Translations under genes and position numbers: made by a program
Shown: positions 36,160 to 47,000 of the stretch, in pieces
Layout: each line of letters begins with the position of its first letter
How positions within the stretch are numbered: position 1 is the first letter of the stretch
Assembly: GCA_030390025.1 (NCBI GenBank)
Contig: CM059432.1
Location: 10,168,001-10,232,000 of the forward strand
Length of the DNA: 64,000 nt
Reading direction: 5' to 3'
Source: Squalus acanthias
Lineage: Eukaryota
The notes under the pieces: generated by a model
The model's input: the letters and a program-made list of their open reading frames with translations, nothing else
What the model was told of the DNA's origin: nothing
Databases searched by the model: none

Positions 36160-37172
36160 CTTCTTCCTTCTTCTTAGGCAGTCCCTCGGAACCGAGGATG
36201 ACTTGCTTCCACATTAAAAATGAGTTCGCAGGTGACTGATGAGTCCAATGCGGGACCTACAGTCTCTGTCACAGGGTGGGGCAGACGGTGGTTGAAGGGG
36301 CGGGTGGGTGGGGTGCTTGGGTTGACGTGCGCTCCTTGCGCTGCCAGCGCTTGGCTTCCGCTTGCTCCCGGCGAAGAGACTCGAGGTGTTCGGCACCTTC
36401 CTGGATGCTTCTCCTCCACTTTGAGCGGTCTTGGGCCAGGGATTCCCAGGTGTCGGTGGGGACGTTACACTTTTTCAAGGAGGCTTTGAGGGTGTCCTTG
36501 AAGCGTTTCCTCTGCCCACCTGGGGCTCTCTTGCCGTGCCAGGAGCTCCAAGTGGAGCACTTGTTTTGGGAGTCTCGTATCGGGCATGCGGACAATGTGA
36601 CCTGTCCATCGGAGCTGATCAAGCGTGGTCAAAGCGTCGATGCTGGGGATGTTGACCTGAGCAAGAACACTGACGTTGGTGCACCTATCCTGCCAATGGA
36701 TTTGCAGGATCTTGCGGAGGCAGCGTTGGTGGTACCTCTCCAGTGCTTTGAGGTGCCTGCTGTACATGGTCCATGTCTCTGAGGCATACAACAGGGAAGG
36801 TATCACTGCTGCTCTGTGGACCATGAGCTTAGTGCCGAGTTTGAGGTCCTGGTCTTCAAACACTCTCTTCCTCAGGCGACCGAAGGCTGCACTGGCACAC
36901 TGAAGGCGGTGTTGGACTTCGTCATCGATGTCTGCCCTTGTTGACAGTAGGCTCCTGAGGTATGGAAAGTGGTCCACGTTGTCCAAGGCCTTGTCGTGAA
37001 TTTTGATAATCGGGGGGCAGTACTGTGTGGCGGGGGCAGGTTGGTAGAGGACCTTTGTCTTACGGATGTTTAGTGTAAGGCCCATGCTCTCGTACGCTTT
37101 GGTGAAGGTGTTGACGATGGTTTGGAGTTCGACCTCCGAGTGAGTGCAGACGCAAACGTCGTCTGCATACTG
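36160..37172 (-). mobile_element. RTE-clade LINE 3' portion
   Basis: QYADD, LDNVDHFPYL.SLLS, ASAAFGRLRKRVF and LLYASETWT motifs; (gaa)n-like tail. Confidence 0.88.
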
Positions 37173-37754
37173 TACTGTACAGGTAGTCAATGTCTAACAG
37201 GTTGCACTAAAGCTCTTCTTTTAACGTACATCACTTCCATGGATTTTAATTTGAACTTAAAAGCATGCCATTTATATTCAGTATCAATCATGTCTCACCC
37301 AGTAAGGTTGACCAATTGACCTGTTTCACGTCTTCTGCCAGCTTCATAAAATCAACAACAATTTGCATTTATAAAGCGCCTTTAATGTAGTAAAACGTCC
37401 CAAGGTGCTTCACAGGAGTATTTTAAGACAAAAAATTTGATACCGAGCCACATAAGGAGAAATTAGGGCAGATGACCAAAAGCTTGGTCAAAGAGGTAGG
37501 TTTTAAGGAGCGTCTTAAAGGAGGAAAGAGAGGCGGAGAGGTTTAGGCAGGGAATTCCAGAGCTTCGGGCTCAAACAACAGAAGGCACGGCCACCAAAGG
37601 TTGAGCGATTATAATCAGGGATGCTCAAGAGGGCAGAATTAGAGGAGCGCAGATATCTCGGGGGGTTGTGGGGCTGGAGGAGATTACAGAGAGAGGAAGG
37701 GGCGAGGCCATGGAGGGATTTGAAAACAAGGATGAGAATTTTGAAATCAAGGCA

Positions 37755-39379
37755 TGTAAGGGGTGAGCTGCGGCTCTGTGCTTAGCCTGGGTGCTAGTGC
37801 GAGGTTAGGCCTTGTTGCCTGTTCTGGTCTCCAGCCAGCCTGATAACACTAGACACCTGTGAGTGGTTCGACCCACTCGCCCTTACGGTTCTGACACTGG
37901 ACTTGGGTGCGAGAGCAATAATGCAGAGAAAAACTCAGGTAGACCCGGTCGAATAGTGCGAAATGGAAAATCTTTATTGCATATTATTCAAGATTACGAG
38001 ATACACGTCATAAGCACAGATTAATGACAGTACAATCTTACACACAGTTATGAAAGTAATTTTAGGGAAACGAGGAGCGCATGACACATCGTAAAAGGGG
38101 ACACACATTATACTTATCCTTAAAACTTAAACCCTCCCCTATCAATACCTGTCCTAATCCAGATTTGTAGGATCGAGACTCATGCTCACCACTCGTGATA
38201 ACTCGGAGAATTCCGAAACTCTGCTCGGATGTTTATACCGCAGCACCTGACTATCCACGTGTTGATCAGGGGTCTCTGTACCCCACTTGTTTACTCGTTT
38301 CTGCTCCGGCTAGCAGGCTGGACCGTCTGCTGTCATGAAGATCTGTGTTGTCCTCGGAGTTCCGATACTATTCAAAGAAGAGTCTTCCTGTGCCCTCACA
38401 CCGGTTCGATAAAACTCGAAGAAGGGTCTTCCTAGGCAAGGAAGTGTTTATTCGACTTACAGGCGCGGTCGGGGCTTACTGACCGTGGCGATACGTATTG
38501 TCGTCTTCTTCTCTTCTCATCTCATCTCATCTCCTCTCGGGGCTTCAGTTCCAACACCGTTTACCGACTTCTCGGGATGGTGCGCCCGTTTCAAGGCCTC
38601 ACAGCCCAGTTCTACACAGATCTTCGCGGCAAGCCACGAGGTTGATCCTAGCGGATCAGAGTCCAGAGCCGTCAGGCAGGATAATAAAAATTCAACAGCC
38701 TTCCAGCGAGTCAAAGCAACAAGCGCAAGAAGAAGCAGAGACAGCAGAGCGATGGACGGTTGTACCTTACAGTTATAGTGCTGTAATTCCTCTTTTCCCG
38801 CCCAATCTTAATGTCTATCTTTTGTCAGGGTTTTGGCGCTCAAACTTCTTGTATGGGGTGATCTCCGTCTTTAATGGGTTTCGGTGATACTTGTAACTGT
38901 CTGAGTACCCGTTAATACTTCTCCCATTGTGGAACCGGCTAGTAGTCTCCCTGGAGGGGTTTTGGGGCTTCCAAATGCTTTCTGTAACTACCCGCAAACG
39001 GCTCTCTCATCGTAGAGTCGTGGGGATTTTGCATATTAATGTCTTTGGATGGGTCCTTGATCGCTCGGTACAATAGCTCTTATTCGCACCTGGGAGACCG
39101 ATTCCAGTATTTATGTATAAAATGCAAACCCATCATGTCTTGTCAATTATATCAAATGTGCTGAGTCCTGTACGATCTTGCACAAATGTTTATTGGAACG
39201 CCATCTTGTCTGCCCATTGAAAGTCTAGAACTTTCTGCCACGAGGCGTGGCGGCCATTTTACAGGCTGTTTGTGTCCGTTTTGAAACCTGACAGCATTCT
39301 GCTGAAATAAAGCTGTTTGTACGAAACTTTATGTCTCCTTCTTATTTTATAAAATCGCGATAATTTTGCGAATTCTACA
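37755..39379 (-). mobile_element. Solo LTR, 1625 bp
   Basis: TGTA...TACA ends, 4-bp TSD GGCA (37751-37754 and 39380-39383), clean interruption of the L2, and AATAAA about 220 nt from the minus-strand 3' end. Confidence 0.85.
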
Positions 39380-39541
39380 GGCATTGCTTAACCGGGAGCC
39401 AATGTAGGTCAGCGAGCACAAGGGTGATGGGCGAACGGGACTTGGTGCGAGTTAGGACACGGGCAGCAGAGTTTTGGATGACCTCAAGTTTACATAGGGT
39501 AGAATGTGGGAGGCCAGCCAGGAGTGTGTTGGAATAGTCAA

Positions 39542-39735
39542 TGTGGTAACACAATACAGCTTCCTGTGACTCGAACTTTATTGCATCACTTCCTGTGATT
39601 AGTCCAGGATAAATACTGGGCTGATCAGTTGGATCCTGGAGAGGCATAGAGTAAGACCTCTTTTGTATGTAGCACCTTTTTAGTTGATTAAAGCTTACTT
39701 TAAGTTCACCACGCGTAAGGCTCATTCTTACGACA
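39542..39735 (+). repeat. Gypsy 5' LTR
   Basis: TG...CA; identical to 43816-44009. Confidence 0.97.
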
Positions 39736-39736
39736 A

Positions 39737-39747
39737 TTTAATCAACT
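39737..39747 (+). promoter_or_regulatory. Non-tRNA primer-binding site complementary to its own LTR
   Basis: TTTAATCAACT is the exact reverse complement of AGTTGATTAAA at 39682-39692; there is no TGG start. Confidence 0.7.
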
Positions 39748-39813: not shown

Positions 39814-42800
39814 ATGGAAAACATCCTTAAACCATCGCGTCTTGACTTGGACCCAAACACCCCAGCAGCCGGTAAGGTGTGGAAACACTGGTATCGCACG
39901 TTTGACAATTTTCTTGAATATTGTAAGGCTGATGATAACTCAAAGTTGCGGATACTCATCAACTGTGTCACACCGAATGTATTTCAGTATGTGGAGAAAT
40001 GGGACAGTTACGAGGAGGCAATTCGGACGCTTAAGAGACTATATACTAAGACAACGAATGAGGTCTTTGCCAAACATCTACTAGCTACAGCCCAACAAGG
40101 GCCGGAGGAATCCATTGATAAATTCCTCCAAGAGCTTCGCAGACTTAGTATGGACTGTAACTTTCGGGCGGCCTCAGCTGAGCTGTACCGTGAAGAAATG
40201 ATCCGTGATGCTTTCATCTGCGGGCTTGCCTCCCCATTTATACGCCAGCGTCTACTGGAAAGTAAGACACTTGAGCTTCAGAAAGCTTATGACATGGCTT
40301 GCTCTCTAGATCTGGCAAAAAGAAATGCAGACCTTTATACAGTGCCCAGACCTCGGTCTACTGCCTTAACTACAGTCAAGCAATTTAAGAGGCCACAGGT
40401 GAACTCTATTAGGGAGGTCTTTATCCCTGACGATCAATCTGATGACTTCACTGATGAAGAGGATGATGACCCCACTGTGGCAGCCTCTTGGCAATCTAAG
40501 AAATGCTTCTTTTGTGGTGATGAGTTCCACCCTCGGAAATTCTGCCCTGCTCGCAATGCGTTTTGCAGTCATTGCAACAAAAAGGGTCATTTTGCAAAGG
40601 TTTGCCTATCAAGAGCCTCTACGAGGGCTTATCAAGCTAAGTCCTACCGAACTGCCCCGGTAAGGGCCTATCAAGATGTTCCGGCTAAAATCTATCGTGC
40701 TTCCTCTCGAAGAAACACACCTAGAGTTTCAGCCACTCTTTGTGCAACGACACCAATTACAGCTGCTTGTCCTCAGAACCTATTCCATGCAGCTACAAAA
40801 GCATCAATTAATGGACATACTTTAGATGCCTTAATTGACTCAGGTAGCACTGATAGTTTCATTAGGGAACAGATTGTTGCAGAGTTAAAGCTACATGTTT
40901 TCCCATCGGACCAGGCAGTTGCGATGGCTCAGTCATCACTTAATACCAGAATTTCTGGCTTTTGTATGGTTGAAATAACACTTAATGGTCGCAGGTATCC
41001 CTCCACCCGGCTTTCGGTGCTCAAGGACTTATGTAGTGATCTTATCTTAGGGCTGGATTTTCAAAAGCAGCATAAGAAGCTCACCATTGAGTTCGGCGGA
41101 TCCAAACCTGAACTCACTATTTCTAATATACTACCTCGATTACCGTTCTGTGCATTGTCAGCAGTTTCACTGGATGAACCCTCACTGTTTTCCAGTATCC
41201 CTCCTCGATGCAAACCGATTATAACAAAGTCACGACGTTTCAGTCAGGAAGACCAGTCTTTTATTGCGGCTGAGATTTCTCGGCTTTTAGCAAAGGATAT
41301 CATCGAGCCTTGTTCGTCGCCATGGCGCGCCCAGGTCGTTATTGTTAAGAACCCTCTACAACCTCACAAGAAACGGCTGTGCATTGACTATTCACAGACC
41401 ATCAATCAATATACGGACTTGGACGCATACCCATTGCCGCGCATCGATGATATGGTTAATAAATTGGCTGAGTACACGGTGTTCTCAACATATGATCTAA
41501 AAAGTGCCTATCATCAGGTACCCTTGAAGGTCTCAGACAAGCAGTATACGGCCTTTGAAGCCAATGGACGGCTGTATCAATTTCGTCGCCTCCCCTTTGG
41601 GGTCACTAATGGAGTGGCTGTCTTCCAGCGAGCAATGGATGACCTGGTCAAACAGGAAGACTTGAAGGATACGTTTCCTTATCTGGACAATATTACTGTC
41701 GCAGGTCGCAATCAGCGGGAACATGACGCCAATCTCCAACGATTTTGGGACGCACTCCAGCACCGTAATTTGACATTAAATGCGGCTAAATCCATTGAGT
41801 CACAACCAACCATCAACATCCTTGGCTATTGTGTGGGCAATGGCATCATTAAACCTGACCCTGAAAGGCTTCGCCCACTCCAAGAACTCCCGCCACCTAA
41901 GAATCCGGCCTCCTTGCGCCGGGCCCTCGGCCTGTTTGCATACTATGCTAAATGGATTCCTAACTTCTCGGACCGAATCCAACCTCTACTGAAGGCCAGC
42001 ACATTCCCACTAGACACAGCGGCTGTTGCAGCCTTTAACCTCCTGAAAAAACAGTTGGAGAAAGCGACTCTTCACTCCATCGATGAGAGTCTTCCTTTTG
42101 TCGTTGAGTGTGATGCCTCGGAGGTGGCGATCTCGGCCACTCTGAATCAGGAAGGTCATCCGGTGGCATTTTTGTCCAGGACTTTTCAAGGGGCTGAGCT
42201 ACATTATCCTCCAGTCGAGAAAGAAGCTACAGCCATCATAGAGGCAGTACGGAAGTGGAGTCATCTCCTAGCTCGCCAGCACTTTACCTTAATCACGGAC
42301 CAGCGATCGGTCGCCTTCATGCTCGATAATCGAAAACGGACCAAAATTAAAAATAATAAAATCCAGCTTTGGCGGCTGGAATTGGCCTCTTTTGGTTACA
42401 CCATCCACTATCGACCTGGCAAGGAGAATGTGGCTCCGGATACCCTCACACGAGCATTCTGCTCCTCCATGGCACCCACTACGCTCGTAGACATCCATGA
42501 TGGGTTGTGTCATCCGGGCGTTACTCGCATGCTACACTTCGTGCGGTCCCGAAATCTCCCATTCTCTACCGGGGATGTAAAGAAGATGTGCTCGGACTGC
42601 AGAGTCTGTGCGGAATTGAAACCTCGGTTTTTCCGCCCCTCGGGTGGTATACTCATACATGCGACCCAGCCAATGCAACGGCTTAGCATCGATTTTAAGG
42701 GGCCGTTGCCCTCTTCAACTCGCAACACTTATCTATTGACCATGGTCGATGAGTATTCCCGTTTTCCGTTTGCCTTTCCCTGCCCCAATATGCTGACGAC

Positions 42801-43752
42801 CACGGTTATCAGCTGCCTTGAGCAGGTATTTGCTTTCTGTGGCATGGCATCCTATGTTCATTCGGATCGGGGCCCTTCTTTTATGTCAGGAGAACTCGAG
42901 GCCTATCTCTCGGAACGGGGTATTGCTGCCAGCAAAACGACGCCTTATCATCCGGTCGGGAATGGGCAAGTCGAGCGTTTTAACGCTATCATCTGGAATG
43001 CGGTACGTCTGGCTTTGAGATCTCGGGGCCTACCCAACCAGCAATGGGAAGCAGTACTTCCAGACGCATTACACTCCACACGGTCCCTCCTTTCGACCGC
43101 CACAAATACGACGCCTCATGAACGGTTCTTCCGATTTCAGCGTCGCTCATCCTATGGGATATCTCTCCCATCGTGGCTGACTGCACCGGGACCAGTGCTA
43201 CTCCGAAGATATGTCCGGGCGTCTAAGAATGACCCCCTGGTAGATGAGGTTGAGCTCACTGACGTCAACCCTACCTACGCCTATATTCGGTATCCTGACG
43301 GTCGGGAATCTACCGTGTCATTGCGGGATCTGGCTCCCTGCCCGCCGAAACATAGAGGGACACCAGGGGATGATATTGTACCAGGCACATCTCTGGGCTC
43401 GCCAGGTGCCTCTCATCATGATCTGGATCTGACGCCGGCTGGTACCTCACTCCAGCGTGCCGACCTGGGGCAGACTGACTATGAGCCTGTCGGGGCTCGC
43501 ACGCGCAGCCACGATCCACCCTGTACCGTACGCTCGGAAACGGATCTGCCACAGCCCTGCCCGACACCCGTTCGGGCACCAGTACACAGTCAGGATCGTC
43601 CTGACCCCTCACAGAGCGGGCTGGATCACTCGGACTCTGGTCCACGGCCCGCGGCGGGTAAACGGGCTAGGGGCCCTCTACCGCTACGAGAACCCAAACG
43701 GGTGCGGCTCTCCCTCGTCCAGCGGCTACGAAATGGAGGGAGAATGTGGTAA
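39814..43752 (+). CDS. Gag-Pol polyprotein, 1312 aa (Gag zinc knuckles, protease, RT, RNase H, integrase)
   Basis: CFFC..H..C and CSHCNKKGHFAKVC; LIDSGS; YLDN; ECDASE; H..H..CSDCRVC; DFKGP/HSDRG/GQVER. Gypsy domain order, no chromodomain seen. Confidence 0.97.
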   Translation: MENILKPSRLDLDPNTPAAGKVWKHWYRTFDNFLEYCKADDNSKLRILINCVTPNVFQYVEKWDSYEEAIRTLKRLYTKTTNEVFAKHLLATAQQGPEESIDKFLQELRRLSMDCNFRAASAELYREEMIRDAFICGLASPFIRQRLLESKTLELQKAYDMACSLDLAKRNADLYTVPRPRSTALTTVKQFKRPQVNSIREVFIPDDQSDDFTDEEDDDPTVAASWQSKKCFFCGDEFHPRKFCPARNAFCSHCNKKGHFAKVCLSRASTRAYQAKSYRTAPVRAYQDVPAKIYRASSRRNTPRVSATLCATTPITAACPQNLFHAATKASINGHTLDALIDSGSTDSFIREQIVAELKLHVFPSDQAVAMAQSSLNTRISGFCMVEITLNGRRYPSTRLSVLKDLCSDLILGLDFQKQHKKLTIEFGGSKPELTISNILPRLPFCALSAVSLDEPSLFSSIPPRCKPIITKSRRFSQEDQSFIAAEISRLLAKDIIEPCSSPWRAQVVIVKNPLQPHKKRLCIDYSQTINQYTDLDAYPLPRIDDMVNKLAEYTVFSTYDLKSAYHQVPLKVSDKQYTAFEANGRLYQFRRLPFGVTNGVAVFQRAMDDLVKQEDLKDTFPYLDNITVAGRNQREHDANLQRFWDALQHRNLTLNAAKSIESQPTINILGYCVGNGIIKPDPERLRPLQELPPPKNPASLRRALGLFAYYAKWIPNFSDRIQPLLKASTFPLDTAAVAAFNLLKKQLEKATLHSIDESLPFVVECDASEVAISATLNQEGHPVAFLSRTFQGAELHYPPVEKEATAIIEAVRKWSHLLARQHFTLITDQRSVAFMLDNRKRTKIKNNKIQLWRLELASFGYTIHYRPGKENVAPDTLTRAFCSSMAPTTLVDIHDGLCHPGVTRMLHFVRSRNLPFSTGDVKKMCSDCRVCAELKPRFFRPSGGILIHATQPMQRLSIDFKGPLPSSTRNTYLLTMVDEYSRFPFAFPCPNMLTTTVISCLEQVFAFCGMASYVHSDRGPSFMSGELEAYLSERGIAASKTTPYHPVGNGQVERFNAIIWNAVRLALRSRGLPNQQWEAVLPDALHSTRSLLSTATNTTPHERFFRFQRRSSYGISLPSWLTAPGPVLLRRYVRASKNDPLVDEVELTDVNPTYAYIRYPDGRESTVSLRDLAPCPPKHRGTPGDDIVPGTSLGSPGASHHDLDLTPAGTSLQRADLGQTDYEPVGARTRSHDPPCTVRSETDLPQPCPTPVRAPVHSQDRPDPSQSGLDHSDSGPRPAAGKRARGPLPLREPKRVRLSLVQRLRNGGRMW

Positions 43753-43781
43753 CACAATACAGCTTCCTGTGACTCGAACTT
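43738..43781 (+). repeat. Duplicated PPT end plus first 37 nt of the LTR
   Basis: gggagaa|tgtggtaacacaatacagcttcctgtgactcgaactt is repeated at 43809-43852. Confidence 0.9.
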
Positions 43782-43815: not shown

Positions 43816-44009
43816 TGTGGTAACACAATACAGCTTCCTGTGACTCGAACTTTATTGCATCACTTCCTGTGATTAGTCCAGGATAAATACTGGGCTGATC
43901 AGTTGGATCCTGGAGAGGCATAGAGTAAGACCTCTTTTGTATGTAGCACCTTTTTAGTTGATTAAAGCTTACTTTAAGTTCACCACGCGTAAGGCTCATT
44001 CTTACGACA
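43816..44009 (+). repeat. Gypsy 3' LTR
   Basis: Identical to the 5' LTR. Confidence 0.97.
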
Positions 44010-47000
44010 GTCAAGTCTAGAGGTAACAAAGGCATGGATGAGGGTTTCAGCAGTGGATGAGCTAAGGCAGGGGCGGAGACGGGCGATGTTACGGAGGTGG
44101 AAATAGGCGGTGTTAGTTATGCCGCAGATATGTGGTCGGAAGCTCATTTCAGGGTCAAATATGACACCAAGGTTGCGAACAGTGTGGTTCAGCCTCAGAC
44201 AGATGTTAGGGAGAGAGATGGAGTCAGTGGCTAGGGAACTGAGTTTGTGGCGGGGACCGAAAACAATGGCTTCGGTCTTCCCAATATTTAATTGGAGAAA
44301 ATTTCTGCTCATCCAGAACTGGATGTTGGACAAGCAGTCTGACAATTTAGAGACCGTGGAGGGGTCGAGAGAAGAGGTAGTGAGGTAGAGCTGGGTGTCG
44401 TCAGCATACATGTGGAAACTGACGCTGTGTTTTCGGATGATGTCACCAAGGGGCAGGATGTTGATGAGAAATAGGAGGGGGCCAAGGATAGATCCTTGGG
44501 GGACACCAGAGGTAACGATGCTGGAGGAGGAAGAGAAGCCATTGCAGGTGATTCTCTGGCTACAATTAGATAGATAAGAATGGAACCAGGTGAGTGCAGT
44601 CCCACCCAACTGGACGATGGTGGAGAGGCGTTGGAAGAGGATGGAGTGGTCAACCATGTCAAAGGCTGCAGACAAGTCGAGAAGGACGAGGAGGGATAGT
44701 TTACCTTTGTCACAGTCCCAAAGGATTTCATTTGTGACTTTGATGAGAGCAGTTTCGGTACTGTGGCAGGGGCGGAAACCTGATTGGAGGGATTCAAGCA
44801 TGGAGTTGCGGGAAAGATAGGCACGGATTTGGGAGGTGACAGCAGTTTCAAGGATTTTGGAGAGGAAAGGGAGGTTGGAGATGGGGCGGTAGTTTGCAAG
44901 GACAGTGGGATCAAGGATTTTTTTTTGAGGAGAGGGTTGATGATGGCAGATTTGAGGGAGAGGGGGACAGTACCTGAGGAGAGAGAACCATTAACAATGT
45001 CAGCCAACATGGGAGCCAGCAAAGGAGGTTGGGTGGTCAGCAATTTTGTGGCAATAGGGTCGAGGGAGCAGGAATTGGGTCTCATGGACAAGATGAGCGC
45101 GGAGAGGTCATGAGGGGAGATCGGAGAGAAACTGGAGAAAGATGTGAGTTCAGGGCTAGGGCAGGGGGGAACCTTAGAGGAAGTTTGGCCCAGTGGGCTA
45201 GGGGAAGGAAGGGAAGTGTAAGAGGCAGCTGAATGGATGGTCTCAATCTTAGAGACAAAGAAGTCCATGAGCTCCTCACACTTGTTGTCGGAGGTGAGGG
45301 TGGAGGAGACAGGGGAGAGGGGTTTAAGAAGACATTTAGCAGTAGAGAATACAAGCTGGGGTTTATCTTTGCATTGCAGAATGATCCTAGAATAGTGAGC
45401 AATTTTGGCAGATGAGATCAGGACCTGATAATGCTTTATGTGGTCCAGCCAGATCTGGCGGTGAATGGCTAAACCAGTTGTCCGCCATATCTGTTCAAGT
45501 CTGCGTCCCTTGGACTTAAGGGCGTGAAGATGAGGGCCATACCAGGGGGAAATGGCCAGGGTGAGAGAGAGTAATTGTTTTAATAGGGACTAGGACATCA
45601 AAGGTGGTGATGAGGGTGTGGTTGAGCAGATCGGTAGCTTCAGAAATGTCGTGGTGAATGGAGGGCCAAAGGCTGGACAGTTGGGATTTCATAAGTGCAG
45701 TTGTAAGAGAGTTAGGAGAGAGTTTTTTCCAGGGGTGGACACTGAAGGAAATGGGGTTGGCTGGGGGGAAGGGGGATGTGGGTGGAGAGCGATACGAGGA
45801 AGTGGACAGAGATGGCCTTATCTGCAATTGACACGATGGGAGTAGCGAGGCCACGAGAGATGGCAAGGTCGAGGGGATGGCTATGAATATGGGTTGGGGA
45901 GTTTACATGGAGGGAGAGATTACGGGAGGATCGGAGGCTAGTGAACTCAGAGGAGAGACAGCATGATGAATTGAGATGGCGGTTGAAATCACCAAGGATG
46001 AGAAGTCGTTCGGTGCAGAGGCTGAGGAAGGAAAGCAGTGAAGATATCTCGGTAATCAAATTTTTATGGTACTTGGGTGGCCGGAAGAGAATGAGAATTT
46101 TAAATGAGACGTGAGATGGGTGGAATAATGTGAGATGCTCAAAGGAGGAGAAAGTGCCGGAGGGGTAGGGGGACAGACCCAGGTGTGATTTGGTGATGAG
46201 AGCCACACCGCCACCACGGCGGTCTGGGCGGGGCAAGTGGTGGAAGGTATAGCCAGGCGGGGAGGCTTCATTTAAGGGTAAGGTGTCATCACCCCTCAGC
46301 CAAGTTACCGTCAGTGCCATAATATAGATGCAATCATCCAAGAAAAGCTCATGGATGGCAAGGGCCTTGTTCGCAAGTGAACGGATATTCTGGAGGCAGA
46401 TGCGGAGAGGGTCGGTGATGGCTGCCCCACTGCCAGCATCCACAGGGTCAGCGCTGGGGGGGGATGAGTTGGATGGGGAGGAGTTTGGCAAGATTTGCCC
46501 CCAGTGGGCGCGCTAGGCGGGAAGGTCGGCGAGAGAGTAGGATGGGACAGTTGGGGTTGCTGCTCGTAAGGAGGCAGTGACGAGTGCCTCGATGGGCCCT
46601 TCGTAGGATGCCAAGAGAGGCACAGAGGGAGGCTGTGGGCTTATCTAAGAGGGAGTCAAGCCTGGGACAGCGGCAGCAGAGTAGGAAGGTCGAAGAGTAA
46701 TGAAGGATTGTGCTAGGGATTTGGGAGAGCAGTGTATCCGAGAGAGGAGAGATGAAAGGAGGCATGACGACAGGAGAGAGTGGACAGGGAGGGATAGAGA
46801 GAAAAGGAAAAGGGTGAGAATAAAGTGGAAATGTAAGTGAACGGCTCGGGTCCGGAGCGGCAGCCAAAGTGCGCACACTAATGGACGCGGGAAAAGCTCA
46901 GGTTACATAGGCCTGGTTATGTAGTAATTAATGGGATACATAAAGTTAGTTCTTTTAAAATACGAAATTAACTATAGATTCTCAGTACCTTTGTTTCTGA

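Follow-up and report, generated by a model that had tools for sequence, protein, structure and literature searches.

The Gypsy element and its primer-binding site position

The window, i.e., the whole stretch of 64,000 nucleotides of Squalus acanthias DNA analyzed here, contains a young and intact Ty3/Gypsy long terminal repeat (LTR) retrotransposon. Its LTRs read TG...CA and are accompanied by a target site duplication (TSD) and a polypurine tract, and the domains follow the order PR-RT-RNase H-IN. Among relatives with a solved structure, the reverse transcriptase (RT) of Ty3 is closest to that of the window element. The LTR bounds used are corrected ones, since the version given by the repeat finder carried two extra flanking A residues. 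The features identified are as follows.

39537..39541, + strand: left TSD, GTCAA, with its twin at 44010-44014
39542..39735, + strand: 5' LTR of 194 nt, TG...CA, identical to the 3' LTR by sequence comparison
39608..39615, + strand: TATA-like box GATAAATA, which aligns with TATAAATA of family B (a second family of the host genome); predicted transcription start near 39637-39640
39682..39692, + strand: LTR arm AGTTGATTAAA, predicted self-primer, whose 3' end points to the LTR end, the correct polarity for the minus strand
39687..39692, + strand: ATTAAA, the final six bases of the arm, likely a poly(A) signal
39693..39705, + strand: short hairpin predicted by folding, beginning exactly at the arm 3' end
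39714..39732, + strand: U5 hairpin predicted by folding, immediately before the LTR end
39737..39747, + strand: primer-binding site (PBS) position TTTAATCAACT, exact complement of the arm in sequence
39814..43752, + strand: single open reading frame (ORF) of 1312 aa, Gag (two CCHC)-PR-RT (YLDN)-RNase H-IN, without a chromodomain
43735..43781, + strand: partial duplicate of the purine tract and the first ~37 nt of the LTR, containing the ORF stop codon
43804..43815, + strand: polypurine tract
43816..44009, + strand: 3' LTR, with an arm copy at 43956-43966 and no PBS after it
44010..44014, + strand: right TSD, GTCAA

CA dinucleotides are found 15 to 19 nt downstream of ATTAAA, and hairpins like the one that begins at the arm 3' end were predicted in many relatives. 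The family to which the element belongs is young and abundant in the host genome: the 3.7-Gb genome yielded 1252 DNA and 4422 protein candidates, which are not to be read as copy numbers, and the candidates scored were 94 to 100% alike. The partial duplicate at 43735-43781 sits 71 nt 5' of the 3' LTR and may be family-wide, the same 1319-codon frame being present in many copies. The element itself is located inside a decayed LINE (39375-39536 and 44010-46500) with RT/endonuclease-like frames on the minus strand, and a LINE of a second type is present at 36269-37193.

An earlier note on this DNA, made from the letters alone, had claimed that a PBS of the TGG type is absent and that the bases at its place form a perfect 11-nt complement of the LTR. 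Both observations were confirmed. There is no TGG after the LTR, TTTAATCAACT begins 1 nt past the terminal CA, and 39737-39747 is the exact reverse complement of 39682-39692. The register of the PBS is fixed at LTR end +2, and its polarity fits minus-strand priming; the 5' arm copy is separated from it by 44 nt, and a local fold is predicted. When LTRs were shuffled, an 11-nt complement beginning 0 to 5 nt past the LTR was obtained in 93 of 200,000 cases. The complement was unchanged in 30 of the 30 nearest copies, which were picked by similarity. A second subfamily differs at 11 to 12 LTR positions, none of them in the arm, numbers that are too small to count. PBS position 7 was changed in eight copies of the family, and none of the eight had the matching change in the arm, so that arm-to-PBS copying is not directly visible within the family. 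These eight variants fit sporadic mutation. In one copy of family B (L123 and L203, which are the same place), a 6-nt insertion separates the LTR end from the PBS.

Conservation of the helix among relatives

Using the window RT as a query, we retrieved 80 loci from metagenome contigs, in 36 of which the Gag start and the upstream DNA could be scored. The bases following the LTR formed 9 to 16 uninterrupted pairs with an arm located 24 to 66 nt upstream in 27 of these 36 loci, and the remaining ones comprised two loci with 7 pairs and seven with none. Among those lacking a helix, L034, L037, L075, and L077 had no visible LTR end upstream; in L043-L045, the arm region is replaced and the arm was not found in the sequence available, the PBS still being of the L060 type. 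A search of viral contigs gave no relatives, and one of genome contigs yielded one fragment. In the host genome, family B (L166), whose RT is 82% identical to that of the window element, has 13 pairs at the same place, and a search for a third family there returned family B again. Copies of family B were found about 4.3 kb apart at two places (G000:C4:938041 / 942336 and C5:93135067 / 93139353), and these pairs are likely tandem elements with a common LTR.

The complementarity is kept through paired changes across the lineage; a test for such covariation had been suggested in the earlier note. The set used for its assessment consisted of 15 families, represented by one member each and taken from 21 registered elements, all of which had been chosen with the helix and several of which are related. 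In these families, 94.9% of the cells were paired, and changes on both sides were observed in 10 of 13 pairs (30 cells). None of 500 shuffles matched these values, and registers that were slid gave 20 to 49% pairing. Within the 11-pair core, 164 of 165 cells were paired, with 23 double changes and not a single G-U; the predicted folds of the hairpins that flank the helix do contain G-U. The same helix was recovered by RNAalifold unaided. In a swap control on the 21 elements with equal search freedom, 12.2 bp were obtained with the own arm, 5.4 with a foreign LTR, and 3.1 with shuffled DNA. The corresponding sum was 257, as compared with a maximum of 181 in 100,000 permutations; the effect is large, although the shuffle and permutation counts are not probabilities, given that the aligned elements share descent. 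L082, which has a damaged 5' arm and is mis-registered, was left out of the 21-element sets and is counted in the 22-element tRNA comparison below.

The arm/PBS match is a real feature of the whole lineage. The motif is short and AT-rich, as a chance inverted repeat might be, but a chance origin is refuted by the LTR shuffles, the recurrence of the helix at the same register in relatives, the swap control, and the covariation in relatives. Because of this covariation, we rejected it and assign it a negligible probability.

Candidate primers and the proposed priming mechanism

Pairing of the PBS with the CCA end of a tRNA is impossible. The host tRNA genes compared were those for Cys, Lys, Ile, and Thr, an Rfam tRNA search having given mainly Lys and Cys. 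By the earlier note, a PBS match to a host tRNA or tRNA fragment would speak against its reading, and this is half the case: an internal stretch of tRNA-Thr(AGT) can pair with the PBS; tRNA-Ile fits less well. The host tRNA-Thr(AGT) genes (L186, L187) read TTAGTTGGTTAAAGC, which is identical to 39680-39694 at 14 of 15 positions. Their D-loop region forms 10 Watson-Crick pairs and 1 G-U with the window PBS, 11/11 pairs with the PBS of L042, and 13 pairs with that of L032. The primer might therefore be a 5' fragment of the host tRNA-Thr(AGU) that ends in the D-arm, with the LTR arm being merely similar to it, and Copia lineages provide known cases of half-tRNA primers (PMC6317226).

The relatives argue against such a fragment as the primer. 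Over the 11-nt core, the PBSs of 22 elements form 232 Watson-Crick pairs, 1 G-U, and 9 mismatches with their own arms, as opposed to 190, 21, and 31, respectively, with tRNA-Thr, the host tRNA having been used for all relatives. In L036, L047, L060, L061, and L091, the match to the tRNA is broken but that to the LTR is kept. In addition, all of 30 copies have a T at PBS position 6, which matches the LTR A, where a PBS copied from the tRNA would have C. Since the relatives follow their own LTR and position 6 is T, tRNA-Thr is unlikely to be the present primer, and we consider the fragment highly improbable in this role. The arm of L042 equals the tRNA-Thr stretch over 11 nt, which may reflect chance, a relic of an older primer, or a second usable primer.

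Priming without a tRNA, as put forward in the earlier note, thus finds good support in the covariation across the lineage, with the restriction that one tRNA-Thr stretch can pair. Judged from the sequences, it is likely that the element is primed by its own RNA. The PBS of tRNA-primed elements is recopied from the primer in each cycle, and the G-U-free match consequently points to the arm as the primer and not to a mere structural helix. We consider it probable that the arm of the 5' LTR pairs with the PBS and would serve as the primer in place of a tRNA.

The LTRs are identical, so that the 5' and 3' copies of the arm cannot be separated by sequence alone. The primer could accordingly be the arm copy of the 3' LTR, in which case the 3' end of the RNA, cut or trimmed to the arm, would loop to the PBS; every PBS begins T-rich and could pair with A residues at the RNA end. 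However, with ATTAAA as the poly(A) signal, the RNA would extend 10 to 30 nt past the arm and would have to be cut in any case. There is no other hexamer 10 to 30 nt upstream of the arm, and the 5' arm copy lies close to the PBS and is predicted to fold locally with it. Priming from the 3' copy is therefore quite unlikely in our view.

In the mechanism that we propose for the 5' arm, the transcript would fold the arm onto the PBS through 11 bp in the window element and 9 to 16 bp in relatives. A cut at the arm 3' end (AAA/GC), probably by the RNase H of the element in analogy to Tf1, would free a 3'-OH, from which RT would copy U5 and the remainder of R. Strand transfer would make use of the 15 to 20 nt that separate the cut from the predicted poly(A) site as an overlap. 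The PBS would then be rewritten when the primer is copied during plus-strand synthesis, which would explain why the PBS stays a pure Watson-Crick complement.

The arm is probably located 40 to 60 nt inside the transcript in both host families and not at its first base. Families A (that of the window) and B share GTCCAGG..ATAAATACT, with the canonical TATAAATA in B, and the distance from the TATA box to the arm end is 85 nt in A and 103 nt in B. Transcription generally starts about 30 nt past a TATA box, and this spacing, together with the shared TATA, places the predicted start 42 to 60 nt upstream of the arm in the two families. Of the two starts weighed in the earlier note, 39682 and about 39630, we thus lean toward one upstream of the arm for the window family. 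RNA upstream of the core is similarly suggested by helices of 15 to 17 bp that end on the outer side in a run of T (L036, L047, L096, and L103). Counter-cases are L070, where the TATA is 45 nt before the arm end and the predicted start is at the arm, as in Tf1, and L042, whose LTR of only about 80 nt fits a Tf1-like start. The position of the TATA box hence speaks against the first bases of the transcript as the primer in families A and B and for them in L070. In L042 (3971-4040), the arm begins about 40 nt into the LTR.

A TATA match was absent from the scanned stretch of 16 of 21 elements, and most invertebrate relatives show none. No transcript ends or poly(A) junctions were found in eight contig sets, 0 reads came from a single raw run of poly(A) RNA, and a pattern search for polyadenylated retrocopies had 0 matches; these negatives carry no weight for the start or the end of the transcript. 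In an older Gypsy family of the host with a tRNA-type (TGG) site and LTRs of ~120 nt (L170, L172), TATATAA overlaps AATAAAGC. The occurrence of AATAAAGC in this TGG-type family indicates a general LTR motif of the host genome that is not particular to the putatively self-primed clade.

The poly(A) signal and the relation to known elements

The earlier note had described the hexamer in the arm as the only one in the LTR that resembles a poly(A) signal. ATTAAA (39687) is the sole major hexamer, but the minor hexamers AATACA (39553) and GATAAA (39608), the latter inside the TATA-like box, are also present. The arms of 21 elements end in ATTAAA (9), AATAAA (5), GATAAA (3), GTTAAA (2, namely, L032 and L042), and GTTTAA (2). 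A recognized hexamer, i.e., one of the first three, is thus found at the arm end in 17 of 21 elements, with matched changes in the PBS. The predicted pairing of the hexamer is 0.86 to 0.99 with the PBS and 0.15 to 0.99 in the LTR alone; the values for the window element are 0.95 and 0.68, respectively. In L060 and L069, the helix is kept and AATAAA lies seven bases outside. Since a PBS partner is present behind the 5' LTR and not behind the 3' LTR, the asymmetry needed for 5'-specific masking is given, and folding predicts that the helix covers ATTAAA in the 5' copy only.

These data could also mean that the helix mainly silences the 5' poly(A) signal or shapes the leader and that a different primer is used. 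The matched changes at 17 of 21 arm ends and the predicted pairing would be in line with this, as would the HIV-1 hairpin that masks AAUAAA (PMC2645353). However, the partner occupies precisely the position of the PBS, an alternative primer site is not apparent, L060 and L069 keep the helix without covering AATAAA, and the core is free of G-U, unlike an ordinary structural helix. We consider it highly unlikely that the helix has this role instead of priming.

Masking in addition to self-priming, i.e., one helix with two jobs as envisaged in the earlier note, is plausible and predicted by folding, but it is not required across the lineage, as illustrated by L060/L069 and L032/L042. The helix of L060/L069 shows that covering the signal is not always what the lineage conserves. 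A short R region may be all that is behind the overlap of arm and hexamer, since strand transfer would need 15 to 20 nt of R after the cut and the arm would then be at or just before the poly(A) signal. That masking of the 5' poly(A) signal matters for function is possible, although we are inclined to doubt it. In HIV-1, a helix covers the poly(A) hexamer in R, as is predicted for the window element, and silencing of the 5' poly(A) site can also be achieved by U1 snRNP, by U3 enhancers, and through the short distance from the start (PMC2645353). The HIV-1 hairpin is found at either end of the RNA and the HIV primer is a tRNA, whereas the partner in the window element is the PBS itself, at the 5' LTR only.

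The only element in which self-priming has so far been demonstrated is Tf1 of fission yeast; predictions mainly concern its chromovirus relatives and two plant lineages, and proposals cover Tf1/sushi, Tcn1, TAR, and Houba/Osr-1 (PMC6317226, PMC5006619, PMC3601003, PMC6934838, PMC4600332, PMC7175516, PMC5341516). RNase H cleavage sets free the first 11 bases of Tf1, which then serve as its primer (PMC7175516). Like the window element, Tf1 and Tf2 of Schizosaccharomyces pombe and Tj1 of S. japonicus have no tRNA site, a PBS that complements an 11-nt LTR stretch, a single ORF, and a predicted structure beside the cut site (PMC7175516, PMC4600332, PMC5341516). Unlike these elements, that of the window has YLDN, two CCHC knuckles, and an arm with a poly(A) hexamer at its end, and it lacks a chromodomain. 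Families A and B also differ from Tf1 in that their predicted start is upstream of the arm; no tested self-primer has an internal arm. The same criterion, at least 10 LTR-complementary bases 0 to 5 nt past the LTR, applies to the Tf1/sushi chromoviruses of fungi and vertebrates, plant Tcn1, and Copia TAR (PMC6317226). The window element belongs to a different lineage by domain content, and the accessible parts of that source report no poly(A)-signal overlap. Sequence comparison indicates that the window element likely works like Tf1, i.e., as a variant of a known mechanism.

In the accessible parts of the literature searched, mostly open-access papers (PMC8556966 among them) with Repbase and GyDB outside the scope, we found no report of self-priming in a Mag/Cigr-like animal clade or of an overlap with the poly(A) signal. 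If our proposal is correct, a second, broad animal clade would use the same logic, self-priming would have arisen more than once, and such elements would escape control via tRNAs and tRNA fragments. Should silencing of the 5' poly(A) site by the helix also hold true, one structure present only at the 5' end would explain how an LTR element with a poly(A) signal in R avoids stopping in its first LTR. With two young, high-copy families in the same genome, the RNA ends can be mapped in a straightforward manner. A more far-reaching scheme, which is tentative and as a whole rather unlikely, would be that of a widespread animal non-chromovirus Gypsy clade with a new form of self-priming, in which the PBS is paired to an internal arm whose end coincides exactly with the poly(A) signal. 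This helix would conceal the poly(A) site of the 5' LTR during RNA synthesis, and the cut would release a capped primer of ~50-70 nt; the likeness of the arm to tRNA-Thr could date back to a change of primer, from a tRNA fragment to the element's own RNA.

The YLDN motif, the tandem Gag zinc knuckles (two CCHC), and the lack of a chromodomain are as the earlier note had described them, within one ORF. Neither a chromodomain nor a Tf2-type SH3 was matched by Pfam at the integrase end of the window element at E<=0.1, and neither was annotated in any of the 120 homologs listed. Elements with a Tf2-type SH3 were sought in the host genome at two cut-offs and none was obtained, which is no proof of absence. 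In total, 1269 homologous proteins were found, and the named hosts are crustaceans, cnidarians, a nematode, a tunicate, and cartilaginous fish. The homologs listed are mostly about 1200 aa long; among the 120 listed, YLDN is present in 82, and two CCHC knuckles were observed in 78, one in 20, and none in 22, many of these sequences being partial.

Elements of the Cigr-1 clade are characterized by short LTRs, a single ORF of some 1200 codons, and a Mag-like Gag, and their hosts are among tunicates, molluscs, and annelids; two CCHC knuckles in Gag are a Mag-like feature. The window lineage may correspond to the Cigr-1 clade or Mag lineage. It shares with them the two knuckles and homologs of mostly ~1200 aa, including one from a tunicate, a likeness by description. 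The Cigr-1 clade has been placed under the Mag lineage (PMC6238403), and the accessible parts of the Cigr-1/Mag surveys, including this one, do not mention the PBS or priming.

Domain content supports a position of the window lineage outside the chromoviruses and, thereby, the distinction from Tf1/sushi made in the earlier note. The RT tree, a quick version, covers the lineage and another Gypsy family of the host genome and separates the two: 74 of its 77 rows form one clade (SH-aLRT 100), the three outside rows being from that other family, in which a TGG site was seen in L172 alone. The helix is present on every main sub-branch of the clade. In the tree, the window element is closer to crustacean and soft-coral elements (P0001, P0045, and P0022) than to the named cartilaginous-fish ones (P0083, P0101, and P0107; about 60% identity), which is a hint of horizontal transfer.
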